A stretch of DNA of 27,679 bases from Candidatus Thorarchaeota archaeon (GTDB taxonomy: Archaea; Asgardarchaeota; Thorarchaeia; Thorarchaeales; Thorarchaeaceae), in assembly GCA_003345545.1 (NCBI GenBank), contig PRDH01000041.1:1-27679 (forward strand), in the 5' to 3' direction. A program made the position numbers and the translations under genes. Below the pieces are notes generated by a model. The model did not search any database. It saw only the letters and a list, made by a program, of their open reading frames with translations, and was not told the DNA's origin. Positions 12,267 to 26,538 of this stretch are shown here, piece after piece. Each line of letters starts with the position of its first letter. Positions within the stretch are counted from its first letter, which is position 1.

Positions 12267-13598
12267 TCACTTCAGATTATGTTTCTTCACAAACTCGGTC
12301 AAGACATCCACAAGGTCCGGTTTCCCGATCTCCTGCAAGTTATATCTGACTCTGACACTAGGCTTGGTGATTTTGACTACGCGATTCAGGTCAATCGGTG
12401 TCCCGATTACCACTGCATCCACATCCGAGTTATTGATGGTTTCTTGGAGTTCAGAGATCTGCTTCTTGCCGTACCCCATTGCGGGAAGAACATTCTCAAG
12501 ATGACCGTATTTCTCGAAAGTGTCTCTGATACTTCCAACAGCAAACGGCCTTGGATCCACAATTATGGCTCCGGCCTTCCTTGCAGCTATGAACCCAGCA
12601 CCATAGGGCATCTCCCCGTGCGTTACGGTGGGTCCGTCCTCTACTACAATGACTCTTTTTCCGCGAATCGATTCCATCTTTTCGATTATGAGGGGTGATG
12701 CTCCATCGATGATGATTGCCCTGGGGTTTACGGCCACAATATTCTCTCTAATCTCTTCCACATTCTCATAGTCTGCAGTGTCAATCTTGTTGATGATAAC
12801 TACATCCGCCATCCTAAGGTTTGTTTCGCCTGGGTAGTATGATACTTCGTGACCGGGCCTGTGAGCATCAGTGATGACAATGAGTAGGTCTGGCTTGTAG
12901 AACGAGAAGTCGTTGTTTCCTCCATCCCATGTGATGACATCCGCTTCTTTTTCTGCCTGTTCAAGAATCTTGCCATAGTCTACTCCCGCGTAGAGAATGA
13001 CTCCCATATTGATCATGGGCTCGTACTCCTCACGTTCCTCTATCGTGCACCTGTACTTGTCCATGTCCTCTAGGTTCTCATACCTCTGTGCAATCTGCGT
13101 TGTCAGGTCTGGATCATATGGCATCGGATGCCTGATGTTGACTGGTTTGAGACCCATATCCACTAGAATCTGATTCACGCGTCTTGAGGTCTGGCTCTTA
13201 CCACAACCTGTCCGGACAGCACAGATTGCTACAACTGGCTTCTTGCTCTTCATCGAAGTCGTCTTCGGCCCCATGAAACGAATATCAGGGCCGAGCTTAT
13301 TGACCCAAGCTATCTTGTGACCAACCACCTCATATGGAAGATCCGAATAGGCGAGAATACACTGCTCAACATCGAACTTCTTGACTAGTTCGGGTAGTTT
13401 TCCTTCAGGATATATCTTGATACCCTTTGGATAGAGTGGCCCTGCAAGTTCTGGAGGGTACATTCGATCTCCAATTCCGGGGATTTGTTCAGCAGTGAAG
13501 GCCACAACCTCATAGTCTTCGTTATTTCGGAAGTAGACATTGAAGTTATGGAAGTCGCGACCAGCGGCGCCCATGATGATTACTTTCTTCTTGCTCAT
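12267..13598 (-). CDS. COG2403 P-loop protein (cyclic 2,3-diphosphoglycerate synthetase-like / arginine synthetase-like)
   Basis: KKVIIMGAAGRDFHNFN, AVRTGCGKSQTS (P-loop), RHPMPY, TIEEREEYE, WDGGNND, VEDGPTVTHG, LPAMGY. ATG 13598 follows GGAGTGG. Confidence 0.88.
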   Translation of the reverse strand: MSKKKVIIMGAAGRDFHNFNVYFRNNEDYEVVAFTAEQIPGIGDRMYPPELAGPLYPKGIKIYPEGKLPELVKKFDVEQCILAYSDLPYEVVGHKIAWVNKLGPDIRFMGPKTTSMKSKKPVVAICAVRTGCGKSQTSRRVNQILVDMGLKPVNIRHPMPYDPDLTTQIAQRYENLEDMDKYRCTIEEREEYEPMINMGVILYAGVDYGKILEQAEKEADVITWDGGNNDFSFYKPDLLIVITDAHRPGHEVSYYPGETNLRMADVVIINKIDTADYENVEEIRENIVAVNPRAIIIDGASPLIIEKMESIRGKRVIVVEDGPTVTHGEMPYGAGFIAARKAGAIIVDPRPFAVGSIRDTFEKYGHLENVLPAMGYGKKQISELQETINNSDVDAVVIGTPIDLNRVVKITKPSVRVRYNLQEIGKPDLVDVLTEFVKKHNLK

Positions 13599-13770
13599 TT
13601 TGAGTCCACTCCAGTTGTTGGTGGATTTACAGTACTTCGACCCATTAGGCAGGTTAAGTAATTGTTGGTCCATTCAACAGTGTAGAATGCACAGTGAGTC
13701 TAGCATTCTAGCACGACTGTGTGGGGACTATCGGACAGTTTTACTAGAATTGATTAATAGTGAGTATGCC

Positions 13771-13833
13771 TTCGGAAAATCGCAGTCAAAATCCTCCGAA
13801 GATGGATTCGGAAAATCGAACCGATTCCGGGAA
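13771..13833. repeat. Array of direct and inverted TTCGGA(A/G)(A/G)AT repeats; putative operator
   Basis: TTCGGAAAATCG at 13771-13782 and 13807-13818. Inverted copy ATCCTCCGAA at 13791-13800. Related GATTCCGGGAA at 13823-13833. Confidence 0.65.
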
Positions 13834-13838
13834 CAATA

Positions 13839-13853
13839 CAAAGCATTAAATAC
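13839..13853 (+). promoter_or_regulatory. Putative archaeal BRE/TATA promoter of the E2F/DP-like gene
   Basis: Purine-rich CAAAG followed by ATTAAATA, upstream of GGGGTG SD and the TTG start at 13921. Confidence 0.4.
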
Positions 13854-13920
13854 GCGGTGCTTCTATTATGAAAGAAGAGCGCTTTTCTGAGCCCATCGCC
13901 GGATTGATAAGTGGGGTGCA

Positions 13921-14475
13921 TTGTTGAAGCTAGTTGAATTGGCTCTGGAGTCAGTCAGGATTCTGAAGGATGCAGGGGAGGCCGGTATCAAGAGCGACAT
14001 ATTGGCTCAGCGGCTCAATACTCCTAAACGCAGAGTGTATGATGTCATCGCAGTTCTGAAGGCTCTAGGCCAGGTGGATACAAGCAGAAAGTTCGATGGG
14101 ACAACGATTGTATGGATAGATCATTCGAAGGATTTCATCCCAAAGCAAAATCACGAAGAACTGCGAGTCCGGCTGAATCAAGAAAGTGAGGAGCGCAAGC
14201 AGTTTCAAGTTCAAGTAGCAGAACTAAAAGAGCAACTCAGAATCACAAAATCCAAACTCAGACGAGATGTCCAAGCTATTGAGATGGCAAATAAGACGGA
14301 GTTCCTGACGACACAACTTCGGGTACGTGCCCTATCGAGTAATGGAATCAAGAAGGTCGAACATTCCGGAATCGAAGTGCTCATTGAAACTCATGAATCC
14401 GGGATGGTCGTTGACCCGACTGAACTAGAGGTTGACGAAAACGCAGCTCTTCTGAAGAATCTGCAGCGCATATGA
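13921..14475 (+). CDS. E2F/DP-family-like winged-helix transcription factor with coiled coil
   Basis: LAQRLNTPKRRVYDVIAVLKALGQV...TIVWID carries the RRxYD signature, the following VL..(L/I)G and the wing W of E2F/DP DNA-binding domains. A heptad region (aa ~77-120) and a beta-rich C-terminus follow. Confidence 0.8.
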   Translation: MLKLVELALESVRILKDAGEAGIKSDILAQRLNTPKRRVYDVIAVLKALGQVDTSRKFDGTTIVWIDHSKDFIPKQNHEELRVRLNQESEERKQFQVQVAELKEQLRITKSKLRRDVQAIEMANKTEFLTTQLRVRALSSNGIKKVEHSGIEVLIETHESGMVVDPTELEVDENAALLKNLQRI

Positions 14476-14480
14476 TCATG

Positions 14481-14867
14481 TCATAATGTCTTGATGTGCA
14501 CCATGCTACCTCTTCTTACGCCCCTAAGGGAATTGATTCGGCTCACATCTGACGTTACCTTACCCAGAACATTGACTTGACTATAGGTATGTCCATCATC
14601 CAGGTAGATACAGAGTGCATCTCCAAGGGGCATATACGCAATGTCACCCCTCTTCACTTCATTCGTAGGTTTGGCGTTTCCCTTTGATATGCCCAAAGTG
14701 ATTTGCATCTCATTTCGTACGAGTGCGGTTCGTCCTTCCAGAGGGAGTCTGAATTTTATCTCCTCCACTATGAGAGGGGCATGAATTCTGTTGATGATTC
14801 CTTCAATAGCAATGCCCCCTTCAAAGTTGAACTCAAGATGGACATCCGTATCACTGAGATCTGGCAT
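14481..14867 (-). CDS. Cyclophilin-like fold protein (DUF369/TM1367-like)
   Basis: APLIVEEIKFRLPLEG, EVKRGDIAYMPLGDALCIYL and VNVLGKV motifs. GAGG SD. Confidence 0.8.
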   Translation of the reverse strand: MPDLSDTDVHLEFNFEGGIAIEGIINRIHAPLIVEEIKFRLPLEGRTALVRNEMQITLGISKGNAKPTNEVKRGDIAYMPLGDALCIYLDDGHTYSQVNVLGKVTSDVSRINSLRGVRRGSMVHIKTL

Positions 14868-24381: not shown

Positions 24382-25530
24382 TTAGCGGGGCTCCAAGGCT
24401 TGAGCAAGCCCTTCGAGGGTCTCCAAATCCATTTCCTTGATCTGTTCCTCAGGTATTCCCTCCAACATCACCTCAGGAATAGAAACTAGAATCGCAGCTT
24501 TTTCCTTCCCGAATTTCCTCGTGAATTCAGCCATTCTGGGGTCTTCGGCTTCCGCTTCTGCTATCGGTTCTTTAGTGGGTTCTTCAACTGCCTTGCTGCC
24601 GCTTGTCGAAGCAAGTAGTGCCTCCAACTCCTCAATGCTGAGGGTCTTCAGTGTTTCATCTGATACTGACTCTCGAACTTCCTTCGGCAGTTTCTTGATG
24701 AGATCGTCGCGAGTTGGTCCTGGAGTCCTCTTCTTGACTGTTGTTACTTTGCGGACTTTGACAGTTTTCTTCTTCTTTGCTGGAGGTGGCATTGGAGCCT
24801 TGAGCTTGGAAACCAACTCTCTAGCAGATTTTGGGGTCAATCGTTTCAGGTCTTCAGGTGGCAGAGTAGCGATTACTTCTTCCGGCAGTTCAGCTAGGAT
24901 CGATTCCACATCTTTGGAGAGCCCAGGAACTTCAGGCTTTGCCTCCGAGATCCTTCTCTCTTCAGTCAAAAGAATGGGCGTGGCTTCTAGCTCCTCGACC
25001 AATGCGCTTCTATCAATCTCAACATCGAAGCTGCTGGATCGCCATCTAAGGAACCTATCGATGGCATCTGGCCTCATCTTGATGGAAACGAGCAGCCTGT
25101 TGATGCCTTCATCGGGCATGTCTGGGAAGTTATTCAGTATTGTATCGATATTGTCTTTGGATACCCGTGCCCATATTGGCCCATTCAACAGTCTTGAAAG
25201 TCCGGAAGCACAATGCGATCTTACCCACGTGTTCGGGTCCTTCAGTCCTTTCATAAGAACCGGAATTGTGCGTGGCTGATGATAGAATGCCAATGCTTGA
25301 GCTGCTGCGATTCTGACATCGGCAACATCGTCCTCCATGACCTTGGCGATTTCATTCACAAGTGCAGGATCTGCTGCCTCAATCGCGGCAATCAAAGCCC
25401 GTTCCCGAACAACATCCGATGTGTCTGCGAAAGCACGAATGAGAGCTTTCATCTCCTTCGGATCTGTTCTGGCGAGAAGCCCAATCTCGTCTGTATTGAA
25501 TTCCAATAACAGTCTTCTGGTTTCGGGCAA
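24382..25530 (-). CDS. HEAT-repeat protein with Pro/Lys-rich linker and three C-terminal helical repeats
   Basis: HEAT/PBS-type units DTSDVVRERA, DDVADVRIAAAQAL and DPNTWVRSHCASGL. TTG 25530 follows GGAGGA; the ORF-track start is 25548. Confidence 0.82.
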   Translation of the reverse strand: MPETRRLLLEFNTDEIGLLARTDPKEMKALIRAFADTSDVVRERALIAAIEAADPALVNEIAKVMEDDVADVRIAAAQALAFYHQPRTIPVLMKGLKDPNTWVRSHCASGLSRLLNGPIWARVSKDNIDTILNNFPDMPDEGINRLLVSIKMRPDAIDRFLRWRSSSFDVEIDRSALVEELEATPILLTEERRISEAKPEVPGLSKDVESILAELPEEVIATLPPEDLKRLTPKSARELVSKLKAPMPPPAKKKKTVKVRKVTTVKKRTPGPTRDDLIKKLPKEVRESVSDETLKTLSIEELEALLASTSGSKAVEEPTKEPIAEAEAEDPRMAEFTRKFGKEKAAILVSIPEVMLEGIPEEQIKEMDLETLEGLAQALEPR

Positions 25531-25728
25531 TGATTCTCCTCCATGCACTACGAATCTAATTCGTATAGGGATATAATTATCATGCCAGCTACCTAGCCAA
25601 CCCTTGTTCGCTCCGATATAGCTGCTTGCTTATATCAGTTCTCACTGTATATTTACTCTTCTCTGATGTCCCAATCCCTTTCCTTCAACCACATCAGTTT
25701 TAGGCATGTATGAGCGCCAAAAGAATGA

Positions 25729-26538
25729 GTGATAGAGGTGAAAAGAGATCCCGGGTACGAAGCCCTGATGATTATTCTGTTCATGGCACTCATGCTGTTG
25801 ATTGTTGAGATGTCCCCAATTCTCTCTGGGTTCTTTTCCGGTGAGCTCTACGAACTGGTGGCCACAATCACCTTCTTAGCAACCTTCGTGTTGATGTACC
25901 TAGTGATTGATGCCTTCGCTCGGTCAGAAGAATCGTCAATAGGAAGGCTTGGAATCAGCATTGATGAGACTACTTTTCACGACATGATTATCGGTGCGGT
26001 AGCAGGCACGATTGCTGCCTCAGTCGTGATTCTGTTCGCCTTCTATTTCGGAGGTCAACTACGACCGATTGAGCAAATGACTGCTGACCTGCTTGTTTCA
26101 GAGGTGATAATAACTGCTCCAACTGCGGTCTTTGAAGAACTTGCGCACCGCGGGTACATTCTCCCTCATCTTGAGAGTCTCGCAGGAAAGGGGCGTGCCA
26201 TCATTATCGGTTCACTATTCTTCTCACTCATTCATTTCAGCTGGTGGGCTACTCCTGGGTTTCCGGTGCACCTCATTCTGATCTTCACATTCAACATCTT
26301 TCTTGGTGGTGTTGTGCTATCATTGAGCTACTACTGGTCGGGCAGAAGACTCTGGGTGCCTATTTCCTTCCATTTTGCCTGGAATATGCTTGCGTATATC
26401 ATATTCCCAGTGTACCCTCGCGTTCAAGTCGTTCTTCCTGAAATATTCCAGATTGAATGGGGGCTCACAACAATTGCTGGATTCTTGATTGGACTGTCTG
26501 TCCTCTTCGGACTTCTTAGCAGCAGAAAGAGAGAGTAG
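25729..26538 (+). CDS. CPBP/Abi (type II CAAX-like) intramembrane glutamic endopeptidase
   Basis: FEELAHRGY (EExxxR), FSLIH (FxxxH), HFAWN (HxxxN) and multiple TM helices. Confidence 0.92.
   Translation: MIEVKRDPGYEALMIILFMALMLLIVEMSPILSGFFSGELYELVATITFLATFVLMYLVIDAFARSEESSIGRLGISIDETTFHDMIIGAVAGTIAASVVILFAFYFGGQLRPIEQMTADLLVSEVIITAPTAVFEELAHRGYILPHLESLAGKGRAIIIGSLFFSLIHFSWWATPGFPVHLILIFTFNIFLGGVVLSLSYYWSGRRLWVPISFHFAWNMLAYIIFPVYPRVQVVLPEIFQIEWGLTTIAGFLIGLSVLFGLLSSRKRE

Follow-up and report, generated by a model that had tools for sequence, protein, structure and literature searches.

A Thorarchaeota gene of the Asgard E2F/DP homologue family, with a predicted self-pairing tail and E2F-type DNA sites conserved upstream of thyA and MCM

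The Thorarchaeota gene at 13924-14475 on the forward strand of the window (the whole stretch of 27,679 nucleotides that was analysed) probably belongs to the published Asgard family of E2F/DP homologues, i.e., it encodes a small sequence-specific DNA-binding protein with predicted self-pairing. E2F and DP form the eukaryotic switch for entry into S phase. Asgard homologues of these factors were first pinpointed by de Mendoza and Sebé-Pedrós (2019) and were included in the analyses of Eme et al. (2023, Nature 618:992, PMC10307638; Supplementary 4.1.5, ESP table, arCOG02749), where the entries labelled 'E2F/DP PF02319' include at least 20 orthologues from Thorarchaeia that have the same tail segment, and where the archaeal homologues are said to lack a dimerisation domain. 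Jordarchaeia members are named 'E2F family transcription factor' by NCBI. The doubt raised in a preliminary description of this DNA, whether such homologues had been reported, is thereby answered: the Asgard E2F-like family and its DNA-binding domain are already known, and the gene itself is not news. The protein is of the same family, and its DNA-binding domain and base-contact residues fit the account given in those supplementary sections. The tail departs from that account, being predicted to pair with itself and carrying a coiled coil collinear with that of E2F, and the same sections make no mention of E2F-type sites before thyA or MCM.

Gene, start codon and promoter

The features of the gene and its upstream region are as follows:
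13771..13818, forward strand: two TTCGGAAAATCG copies (13771-13782 and 13807-13818), near-palindromic, upstream of the TATA box (repeat finder)
13845..13852, forward strand: TATA-like box ATTAAATA, of putative function, some 70 nt ahead of the start codon
13913..13918, forward strand: Shine-Dalgarno-like GGGGTG, 5 nt ahead of TTG 13924
13924..14475, forward strand: E2F/DP-family transcription factor gene, stop codon included, 183 aa from TTG 13924

In the list of open reading frames the gene appears as 13921-14475(+), with 184 aa and a TTG start. The second TTG, at 13924, is probably the real start, because a Shine-Dalgarno-like sequence lies shortly before it and because in most orthologues the codon that aligns with 13921 is a stop and the protein opens with MKLV. 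The block GTGGGGTGC was nearly invariant, and GGGGTGC was found in 29/29 aligned upstream regions. The open reading frame is a real gene by comparative evidence, since 179 homologues were found and since it is single-copy, with length and synteny conserved, in 72 of 81 genomes from the same GTDB family.

A (T/C/A)TAAATA-type box occurred at the equivalent position in most of 30 orthologous promoters, and about 26 of the 30 carried a TCG(R)(W)AAATCG-type element between -101 and -128. The TTCGGAAAATCG repeats are a candidate operator and not an E2F-type site; the E2F-type motif was absent from the promoter of the E2F-like gene in 30/30 loci. Genome-wide, the motif TCGRWAAATCG was not over-represented (nine found vs. 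7.3 expected), and therefore it defines no regulon and was rejected as a regulon marker. Two further candidates were also discarded, a GCGC-centred palindrome at 13873-13888, which orthologues do not conserve, and an apparent hairpin or palindrome in the 5' leader (GTGCTC-N4-GAGCA), for which RNAalifold gave no supported structure. In the window, and likewise in seven of 12 distant Asgard loci, the E2F-like gene has a cyclophilin-like gene (PF04126) as its neighbour.

DNA-binding domain

The following parts were located in the coding sequence:
13921..14121, forward strand: winged-helix DNA-binding domain of E2F_TDP type, residues 1-67 (Pfam, hhalign, PDB profile search, AF2)
14029..14043, forward strand: RRVYD, base-contacting motif opening the recognition helix (translation; conservation)
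14143..14292, forward strand: long helix, residues 75-124, predicted parallel in-register coiled coil (AF2, pLDDT up to 96; homodimer model)
14296..14418, forward strand: four-strand beta module, residues 126-166, with strands 133-137, 143-148, 153-157 and 162-166 (AF2 model m500d21d91913, pLDDT 75-90)
14437..14469, forward strand: C-terminal helix, residues 173-183 (DENAALLKNL; AF2)

Sequence comparison identified the N-terminal winged helix as homologous to the eukaryotic E2F DNA-binding domain, with the RRxYD motif and the wing tryptophan kept. The Pfam profile PF02319 (E2F_TDP) matched residues 13-66 at 32.5 bits against a cut-off of 25.7; it also matched 36/36 diverse relatives (best E 8.1e-13) and was the top-scoring family in all of them. 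Aligned with eukaryotic E2F winged helices by hhalign, the domain reached a probability of 98.7% (E 2.5e-16). An exhaustive profile search through 1.84 billion representatives returned 51 matches, which were the archaeal family and eukaryotic E2Fs only, and ten eukaryotic matches that were checked all carried E2F_TDP at 57-190 bits. When the family profile was run against the PDB, the only DNA-binding proteins that it retrieved were E2F8 (4yo2, E 4.9e-13), E2F4 (1cf7_A, E 1.1e-8) and DP2 (1cf7_B, E 0.0044). The motif that had been noted in the preliminary description, together with the peptide quoted there, is present, with R37-R38-V39-Y40-D41 exactly at nt 14029-14043; it aligns with RRIYD of E2F4 and E2F8 and with RRVYD of DP2. 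Among the 36 diverse archaeal relatives R37, R38, D41 and W65 were invariant and Y40 was at least 90% conserved. The winged helix was modelled by AF2 at pLDDT 81-91. E2F_TDP exceeded its cut-off in 123 of 301 Asgard genomes vs. 0/14 control genomes. The earlier reading as an E2F/DP-type winged helix with RRxYD and a wing tryptophan, for which a HMMER comparison with E2F_TDP had been suggested, was thus borne out by Pfam, hhalign and PDB profile matches alike.

With DP (1CF7 chain B) the protein shares the literal RRVYD of DP2, and the profile match is significant. This match was, however, much weaker than those to E2F4 and E2F8, no DP was among the 51 matches of the exhaustive search, and the Pfam DP dimerisation domain was lacking.

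It is very improbable, and largely refuted, that the protein is an ordinary prokaryotic winged-helix regulator (TrmB, MarR or HTH_11 type) whose RRxYD likeness arose by convergence. It does share with TrmB-type and other archaeal winged-helix regulators the generic fold and the character of a small, probably dimeric archaeal regulator. Weak TrmB matches were obtained in 18 of the 36 relatives, one of them over the cut-off at 26.7 bits, in a protein that scored 40.4 bits with E2F_TDP. In Foldseek, the full-length model gave generic winged-helix matches with E2F4 at rank 46, below Z-alpha, ArsR and MarR chains, and assignment to a family by fold alone was therefore rejected; the highest identity among the Foldseek matches was nevertheless that of 1cf7_A (28%). 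A better match to TrmB had been named beforehand as evidence that would overturn the E2F reading, but TrmB (PF01978) reached 14.1 bits against a cut-off of 25.6 and E2F_TDP was better throughout, and neither the exhaustive nor the PDB profile search gave any TrmB, MarR or ArsR protein.

Recent transfer from a eukaryote, or eukaryotic contamination of the bin, would agree with the finding that eukaryotic E2Fs are the sole relatives outside the family. Such an origin is also extremely unlikely: the family was present in 35 of the 70 sampled Asgard genera, with named members in Thor-, Hel-, Odin-, Baldr-, Jord-, Ran- and Heimdallarchaeota, and synteny with archaeal genes was kept in 29/29 family loci. 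Moreover, the promoter and the Shine-Dalgarno sequence are of archaeal type, the best eukaryotic match in the exhaustive search reached only E 1.5e-7 with the remaining eukaryotic ones weaker, and the tail differs.

C-terminal tail and self-pairing

In the AF2 models, the elements follow each other in the order claimed in the preliminary description, i.e., winged helix (residues 1-66), long helix (75-124), strands (133-166) and final helix (173-183). The protein ends 18 residues past the beta module, and the final helix was found only in the Thorarchaeota branch, being missing in Helarchaeota, Jordarchaeia, Baldrarchaeia and Heimdallarchaeota relatives. The family can do without the heptad region: about 12 related clusters of 113-137 aa fuse the winged helix straight to the beta module. 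The module is thus conserved in long and short forms, the latter including a Heimdallarchaeota member, while other lineages carry the E2F domain with an altogether different tail.

The predicted coiled coil aligns collinearly with the E2F one, at an equal offset from the DNA-binding domain (hhalign columns 8-43 vs. 9-44). Its hhalign probability was 74% with a score of 22.7, compared with 13.2 when reversed and no more than 22.4 among 60 heptad-block shuffles; coiled coils match easily, and a resemblance to the E2F coiled coil is weakly suggested by these values.

The protein is predicted to pair with itself through the parallel coiled coil and the beta module. The homodimer model reached an ipSAE of 0.50 vs. 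0.00 for the best control, with three runs sharing at least 95% of contacts and a pLDDT of 79; the model was built with the authors' own alignment, and this pass may partly reflect model memory of solved E2F-DP structures. Of 30 proteins solved as homo-pairs, 20 attained the mark of 0.50, as did one of 23 solved as single chains. The modelled interface comprised the coiled coil at 81-116, nearly all of residues 124-166, and the helices 3-12 and 40-51, with in-register contacts at 99:99, 102:102, 106:106 and 109:109. The gene is the sole E2F_TDP gene of its source genome (92.9% complete), with no second E2F/DP gene, so that a heterodimer of paralogues of the E2F-DP type was not indicated and a homodimer was predicted instead, as had been thought probable at first.

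The preliminary description had also recognised the whole layout of winged helix, coiled coil and marked box in this protein. The winged helix and the order of the parts stood and the coiled coil did so weakly, but the marked box did not, since no Pfam, profile or fold likeness to it was detected. The profiles PF16421 (E2F_CC-MB) and PF08781 (DP), with which comparison had been proposed, gave no match in the query (E up to 10) or in ten relatives (E up to 1). PF16421 was over its cut-off in 0/301 Asgard genomes, and its weak matches there sit in unrelated long open reading frames. In hhalign the beta module, formerly taken for the marked box, obtained a probability of 0.3% when compared with the E2F marked box; across three alignment modes (local, global and low-mact), 19-31 of 60 column shuffles equalled its score. 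The family profile retrieved no coiled-coil/marked-box chain from the PDB, and a tail-only AF2 model yielded no marked-box fold match by Foldseek, VIA-align wide or Atlas shape search. An E2F_CC-MB match in the ESM Atlas (0.77, residues 118-184 taken from the whole protein) was discarded; it was leakage from the winged-helix context, because it was gone when the tail was given alone, which then matched unrelated phage proteins (0.85). A 180-aa protein with both E2F_TDP and E2F_CC-MB (P0164) was unusable as an archaeal intermediate, as it lies on a 694-bp metagenome contig of unknown origin.

These results bear on the proposal that the whole E2F/DP architecture is pre-eukaryotic and that the beta module represents the marked box in a minimal, homodimeric ancestral form. 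Both proteins have the same order of winged helix, coiled coil and beta-rich pairing module, and the collinear coiled coil is accompanied by HMMER alignments of the archaeal profile to eukaryotic E2Fs that reach profile positions 106-131. The strands of the marked box lie in the E2F-DP dimer interface (PDB 2AZE), and the archaeal beta module lies almost wholly inside the modelled dimer interface. Against this, the profile, shuffling and PDB searches and the vanished Atlas match gave nothing for a marked box, short forms keep the beta module without the coiled coil, and the tail is different in other lineages. The proposal is therefore considered unlikely, and present evidence does not allow the beta module to be named a marked box. 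It may rather be described, from the models, as a pairing module that the archaeal family conserves at its C-terminus, and the tail as a whole is predicted to fill the place and role of the coiled-coil/marked-box region of E2F, the coiled coil alone having any sequence likeness. It should not be cited as established that the protein has the complete layout of winged helix, coiled coil and marked box.

Compared with typical E2F (E2F1-6; 1CF7 chain A, 2AZE chain B), the protein shares the RRxYD winged helix with the wing tryptophan, a coiled coil directly after it and a C-terminal pairing module, and the candidate archaeal DNA sites fit the E2F consensus TTTSGCGC. It differs in having no DP partner, with a homodimer predicted, in showing no detectable marked-box likeness and in lacking a transactivation or pocket-protein-binding tail. 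It is also shorter, at 183-184 aa vs. about 300-540 aa in the full-length eukaryotic E2Fs retrieved.

E2F-type sites upstream of thyA and MCM

Two E2F-type sites were located in the source genome before genes of DNA synthesis:
G000, C54, 7369-7380: perfect TTTGGCGCGAAA, 105-116 nt upstream of thyA
C78, 27304-27311: TTTGGCGC, 107-114 nt upstream of MCM

An E2F-type 8-mer was present at -93 to -137 in 25/30 orthologous promoters of thyA and 24/30 of MCM, vs. 4/30 of FEN1; the FEN1-proximal site is unconserved and served as the control. At both thyA and MCM the flanks, and even the orientation, vary around the conserved 8-mer. The family loci, 414 kb in all, contained 66 sites (0.16 per kb overall), of which about 50 were those of the thyA and MCM promoters. 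Genome-wide, eukaryote-type E2F motifs and GC cores showed no intergenic enrichment. Conservation of the thyA and MCM sites goes beyond the published literature on Asgard E2F/DP homologues. The MCM promoter sequence that bears the site is GGCGCCAAAA, and TTTGGCGCC, beside TTTGGCGCGAAA, is a candidate binding sequence for the E2F-like protein.

We infer that the targets of the E2F-like protein include TTTGGCGC(G/C)-type sites upstream of thyA and MCM. A less likely alternative is that these sites belong to another factor and that the E2F-family protein acts elsewhere, e.g., in autoregulation or in connection with the cyclophilin-like neighbour. The promoter of the gene itself would agree with this, as it has the conserved near-palindrome TCGRWAAATCG, in two copies here, and no E2F-type site, and the cyclophilin-like gene is its neighbour in distant Asgard loci as well. 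Furthermore, family f12, which has the E2F domain with a different tail, showed MCM promoter sites in only one of 18 cases. On the other hand, it is the a-priori eukaryotic consensus TTTSGCGC that is conserved before two DNA-synthesis genes, the base-contact residues of the protein are invariant, and the motif in the promoter of the gene itself shows no genome-wide enrichment. A comparison of families with and without the factor for presence of the sites did not discriminate and was set aside, as the sites were absent from the E2F-lacking family f9 (MCM 0/29, thyA-like 0/21) and nearly so from the E2F-bearing family f12. Family f14 yielded no ThyA match for this comparison.

Implications

Returning to the reading of the protein as an Asgard E2F/DP homologue that acts at thyA and MCM, two copies would pair via the parallel coiled coil and the four-strand beta module, as modelled. 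This pairing would place the two recognition helices next to each other, like those of the E2F-DP heterodimer, and therefore a symmetric GC-core site should be read. The protein may thus regulate DNA-synthesis genes, including those of thymidylate synthase and MCM. The most far-reaching version, in which the core of E2F G1/S control is pre-eukaryotic, with a homodimeric Asgard E2F, a divergent beta module ancestral to the marked box, TTTGGCGC-type sites, and control of thyA and MCM in Thorarchaeia, is quite unlikely to hold in full.

Beyond the published text, the analyses add the predicted self-pairing of a conserved tail and the conservation of a textbook E2F site before both thyA and MCM. 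If the E2F-like protein does bind the thyA and MCM sites, part of the E2F target logic would be older than the eukaryotes.

Gene, start codon and distribution

The E2F-like ORF is a real gene, and its extent was confirmed as first described, as was the exact position of the RRVYD motif (residues 37-41, nt 14029-14043). The start was judged from two features of the window:

13921-14475, + strand: E2F-like ORF, 184 aa, TTG start
13913-13918, + strand: conserved Shine-Dalgarno-like GGGGTG, 5 nt before a second TTG (13924)

The protein probably begins at this second TTG (183 aa), because of the spacing of GGGGTG and because the codon aligned with 13921 is a stop in most orthologues, whose proteins begin MKLV. 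The gene is single-copy in the source genome (2.69 Mb, 92.9% complete) and was found in 72/81 genomes of the GTDB family to which the source genome belongs, with the surrounding synteny kept in 29/29 family loci. Homologues numbered 179, and those listed with a taxon name were all Thorarchaeota, except one Promethearchaeota. Pfam E2F_TDP was above cut-off in 123/301 sampled genomes of the phylum (35/70 genera), with a sharp contrast between families (68/76 in the source family, but 0/68, 0/28 and 0/21 in three others), and in 0/14 control genomes. The named members of the archaeal E2F-like family span Thor-, Hel-, Odin-, Baldr-, Jord-, Ran- and Heimdallarchaeota.

Identity of the winged helix

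The preliminary description read the N-terminal part as an E2F/DP-type DNA-binding domain, and this reading was borne out. A winged helix was modelled at residues 1-66 (AlphaFold2, 35-sequence alignment, pLDDT 81-91), and the protein matched E2F_TDP with 32.5 bits against the curated cut-off of 25.7. Membership of TrmB, which would account for the domain as an ordinary prokaryotic winged helix, could draw on TrmB matches in 18 of the 36 diverse relatives scanned, but these were weaker than E2F_TDP every time, the latter being the top Pfam family in 36/36. When the archaeal family profile was scored against all 1.84 billion representative proteins (E up to 0.001), only 51 were retrieved, ~38 archaeal clusters and ~13 eukaryote-type E2Fs, with no TrmB, MarR or ArsR protein among them; all ten eukaryotic matches scanned carried E2F_TDP (57-190 bits) and most carried E2F_CC-MB too. 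From the PDB sequences, a broader family profile returned E2F8 (E 4.9e-13), E2F4 (1.1e-8) and DP2 (0.0044), the remaining matches being coiled-coil noise only, and the archaeal and eukaryotic winged helices agreed in profile-profile comparison with 98.7% probability (E 2.5e-16). Throughout the archaeal family, residues R37, R38, D41 and W65 do not vary. The family is nearer to E2F than to DP, although it is DP that shares the literal RRVYD motif with the E2F-like protein. The assignment to E2F/DP rests on sequence, because the fold alone is that of a generic winged helix, with E2F4 only at rank 46 in the Foldseek comparison.

Layout and affinity of the tail

The order of elements proposed at the outset, i.e., winged helix, long helix, beta segment and final helix, is real according to the AlphaFold2 models. 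The 35-sequence model contained one long helix at residues 75-124 (pLDDT up to 96) and left the tail poorly defined, and the tail-only model (62-sequence alignment, mean pLDDT 79) placed strands at 133-137, 143-148, 153-157 and 162-166 and the last helix at 173-183; this final helix is confined to the Thorarchaeota branch. Three architectures emerged from the archaeal cluster alignment. In the long form (160-185 aa) the winged helix is followed by a coiled coil and then by the four-strand beta module; in the short form (113-137 aa), to which a Heimdallarchaeota member belongs, it runs straight onto the beta module; and in the third form the tail is an unrelated one. Since the short form keeps the beta module without the coiled coil, the former is the conserved C-terminal unit and the latter optional.

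Small-genome Asgard lineages have an E2F-type winged helix (EKKRRIYD or EKRRLYD) with a different, probably helical tail. A PF01984 dsDNA-binding (PDCD5-like) gene adjoins the E2F-type gene at 3/3 of the following loci from such lineages, and a Ras-family GTPase gene is among the neighbours at L050:

L041 4221-4667, - strand: E2F-type gene with other tail
L050 4341-4784, + strand: E2F-type gene with other tail
L043 4223-4708, - strand: E2F-type gene with other tail

For comparison, 26 eukaryotic E2Fs from red algae, plants, oomycetes, Acanthamoeba, haptophytes and animals were aligned and the parts compared separately. The coiled coil matched that of E2F collinearly (columns 8-43 on 9-44) with 74% probability and a score of 22.7, against 13.2 for the reversed control and at most 22.4 for 60 heptad-block shuffles. 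Coiled coils resemble each other anyway, and this weak positive hints that the claimed coiled coil may be of the E2F kind.

The marked box, the C-terminal beta dimerisation domain of eukaryotic E2F, which the preliminary description had also assigned, was unsupported. The beta module matched it with 0.3% probability in profile-profile comparison, and 19-31 of 60 column shuffles scored equally well in three alignment modes. Neither Pfam E2F_CC-MB nor DP matched the E2F-like protein or ten relatives, and E2F_CC-MB was above cut-off in 0/301 genomes of the phylum. The tail-only monomer model had no Foldseek match at E < 1 and retrieved its own family only in an Atlas shape search; as the native tail is probably an intertwined dimer, these monomer searches speak neither for nor against a marked-box fold. 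Residues 118-184, taken in whole-protein context, had E2F_CC-MB clusters as their best language-model matches (0.77). This is no evidence for a marked box, because the same residues submitted alone lost these matches and returned unrelated phage proteins: the earlier matches had leaked in from the winged helix.

A protein of 180 aa, P0164 (locus L033, 132-674, + strand), matched E2F_TDP with 67.9 bits and also E2F_CC-MB, with 39.4 bits (above cut-off). It is one intron-less ORF on a 694-bp metagenome contig, and its compactness would suit a prokaryotic gene.

Pairing

Homodimerisation, as first suggested, is probably right by structure prediction. The source genome (92.9% complete) has no second E2F/DP gene, and the predicted homodimer scored 0.50 in three runs vs 0.00 in three controls, a mark reached in the calibration of the method by 20/30 solved homo-pairs and 1/23 solved single chains. 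The runs shared at least 95% of contacts (pLDDT 79). The closest predicted contacts (99:99, 102:102, 106:106 and 109:109) are those of a parallel in-register coiled coil, and the interface takes in nearly all of residues 124-166. Further contacts involve helix 1 (3-12) and, in the recognition helix, its C-terminal half (40-51). The winged helices of E2F4 and DP2 in PDB 1CF7 pack through these last two surfaces, and the pass may for this reason be partly the model's memory of that complex.

Promoter and neighbours

Conservation of the gene's own promoter lies in blocks, i.e., the near-palindrome, the TATA-like box, GGAAG..GTGCTC, CGCCGGAT and the Shine-Dalgarno-like element, with no E2F-type site among them. 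In the window the region comprises:

12267-13673, - strand: divergent upstream neighbour, 468 aa, only a weak CobW/HypB/UreG-type GTPase match
13771-13782: near-palindrome TTCGGAAAATCG, upstream of the TATA-like box
13807-13818: second exact copy, 36 bp apart
13845-13852: TATA-like box of the E2F-like gene
13860-13920: leader with conserved blocks GGAAG..GTGCTC, GAGC, CGCCGGAT and GTGGGGTGC
13873-13888: short inverted repeat AGAAGAGC/GCTTTTCT in the leader
14481-14867, - strand: cyclophilin-like gene (PF04126), tail-to-tail with the E2F-like gene

In ~26/30 orthologous promoters a near-palindrome of the type TCG(R)(W)AAATCG precedes the TATA-like box by ~30 nt, at the same place as here; it is not over-represented elsewhere in the source genome, and is a candidate operator. 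Short inverted repeats recur in the leader with sequences varying between genera, and a common RNA structure was not supported by RNAalifold.

The 468-aa neighbour is kept in 28/29 family loci, the contig of the 29th ending short of the gene. A PF04126 gene adjoins the E2F-like gene in 7/12 loci of distant Asgard lineages, with a CxxCxxCC-domain gene upstream in five of these. This pairing suggests a functional link between the two genes, because it recurs in lineages whose E2F-like proteins have diverged much further than those of the source family.

Candidate target sites

Two genes on other contigs of the source genome (C54 and C78) are preceded by E2F-type sites:

C54 6641-7264, - strand: thyA (thymidylate synthase)
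C54 7369-7380: perfect palindromic eukaryote-type E2F site TTTGGCGCGAAA, 105-116 nt upstream of thyA
C78 25125-27197, - strand: MCM helicase gene
C78 27304-27311: TTTGGCGC, 107-114 nt upstream of MCM and ~35 nt upstream of a TTAAATA box

TTTSGCGC occurred in 25/30 orthologous thyA promoters (-93 to -129), with TTGGCGC at the same place in the other five, and in 24/30 MCM promoters (-99 to -137; inverted in one genus). In the FEN1 control promoters it was found in 4/30 and was not conserved, the source-genome site being 214 nt upstream, and in the E2F-like gene's own promoter in 0/30. Flanks and orientation differ among the thyA and MCM sites, which make up ~50 of the 66 TTTSGCGC-type sites counted in 414 kb of DNA retrieved from the family. 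Intergenic DNA across the source genome shows no enrichment of the motif, and the other sites there adjoin genes with no relation to DNA synthesis or to each other's function (TBP, glutamate dehydrogenase, Alg14, radical SAM proteins, EMC3-like). The phyletic pattern ties no sites to the factor, because they are missing both from an E2F-lacking family (MCM 0/29, thyA-like 0/21) and from a family having the E2F domain with another tail (1/18). From the invariant base-contact residues and an a-priori consensus, we infer that the thyA and MCM sites may be targets of the E2F-like protein.

The sole TTTSGCGC-type 8-mer in the window, GCGCCAAA (25714-25721), lies 11 nt before an ORF at 25729-26538 (+) and 170 nt upstream of a gene at 24382-25548 (-).

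Standing of the family

Whether such homologues had been reported was left undecided in the preliminary description. The archaeal E2F-like family is already known, both published and annotated. E2F homologues in Asgard genomes are mentioned in a passage of a review (PMC7617429), and according to Supplementary Information 4.1.5 of Eme et al. 2023 (PMC10307638), most Asgard groups have E2F/DP homologues in which the DNA-binding domain and base-contact residues are conserved; its reference 44 is de Mendoza & Sebé-Pedrós 2019. Under 'E2F/DP PF02319', the ESP sequence table of the same paper has at least 20 Thorarchaeia orthologues that share the tail segment; the exact sequence of the E2F-like protein was not among the entries compared. 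Jordarchaeia members are named 'E2F family transcription factor' at NCBI. The predicted self-pairing tail would contradict the published statement that the Asgard homologues lack a dimerisation domain. The remaining interest of the family lies in this tail, as predicted, and in the conservation of E2F-type sites upstream of thyA and MCM.
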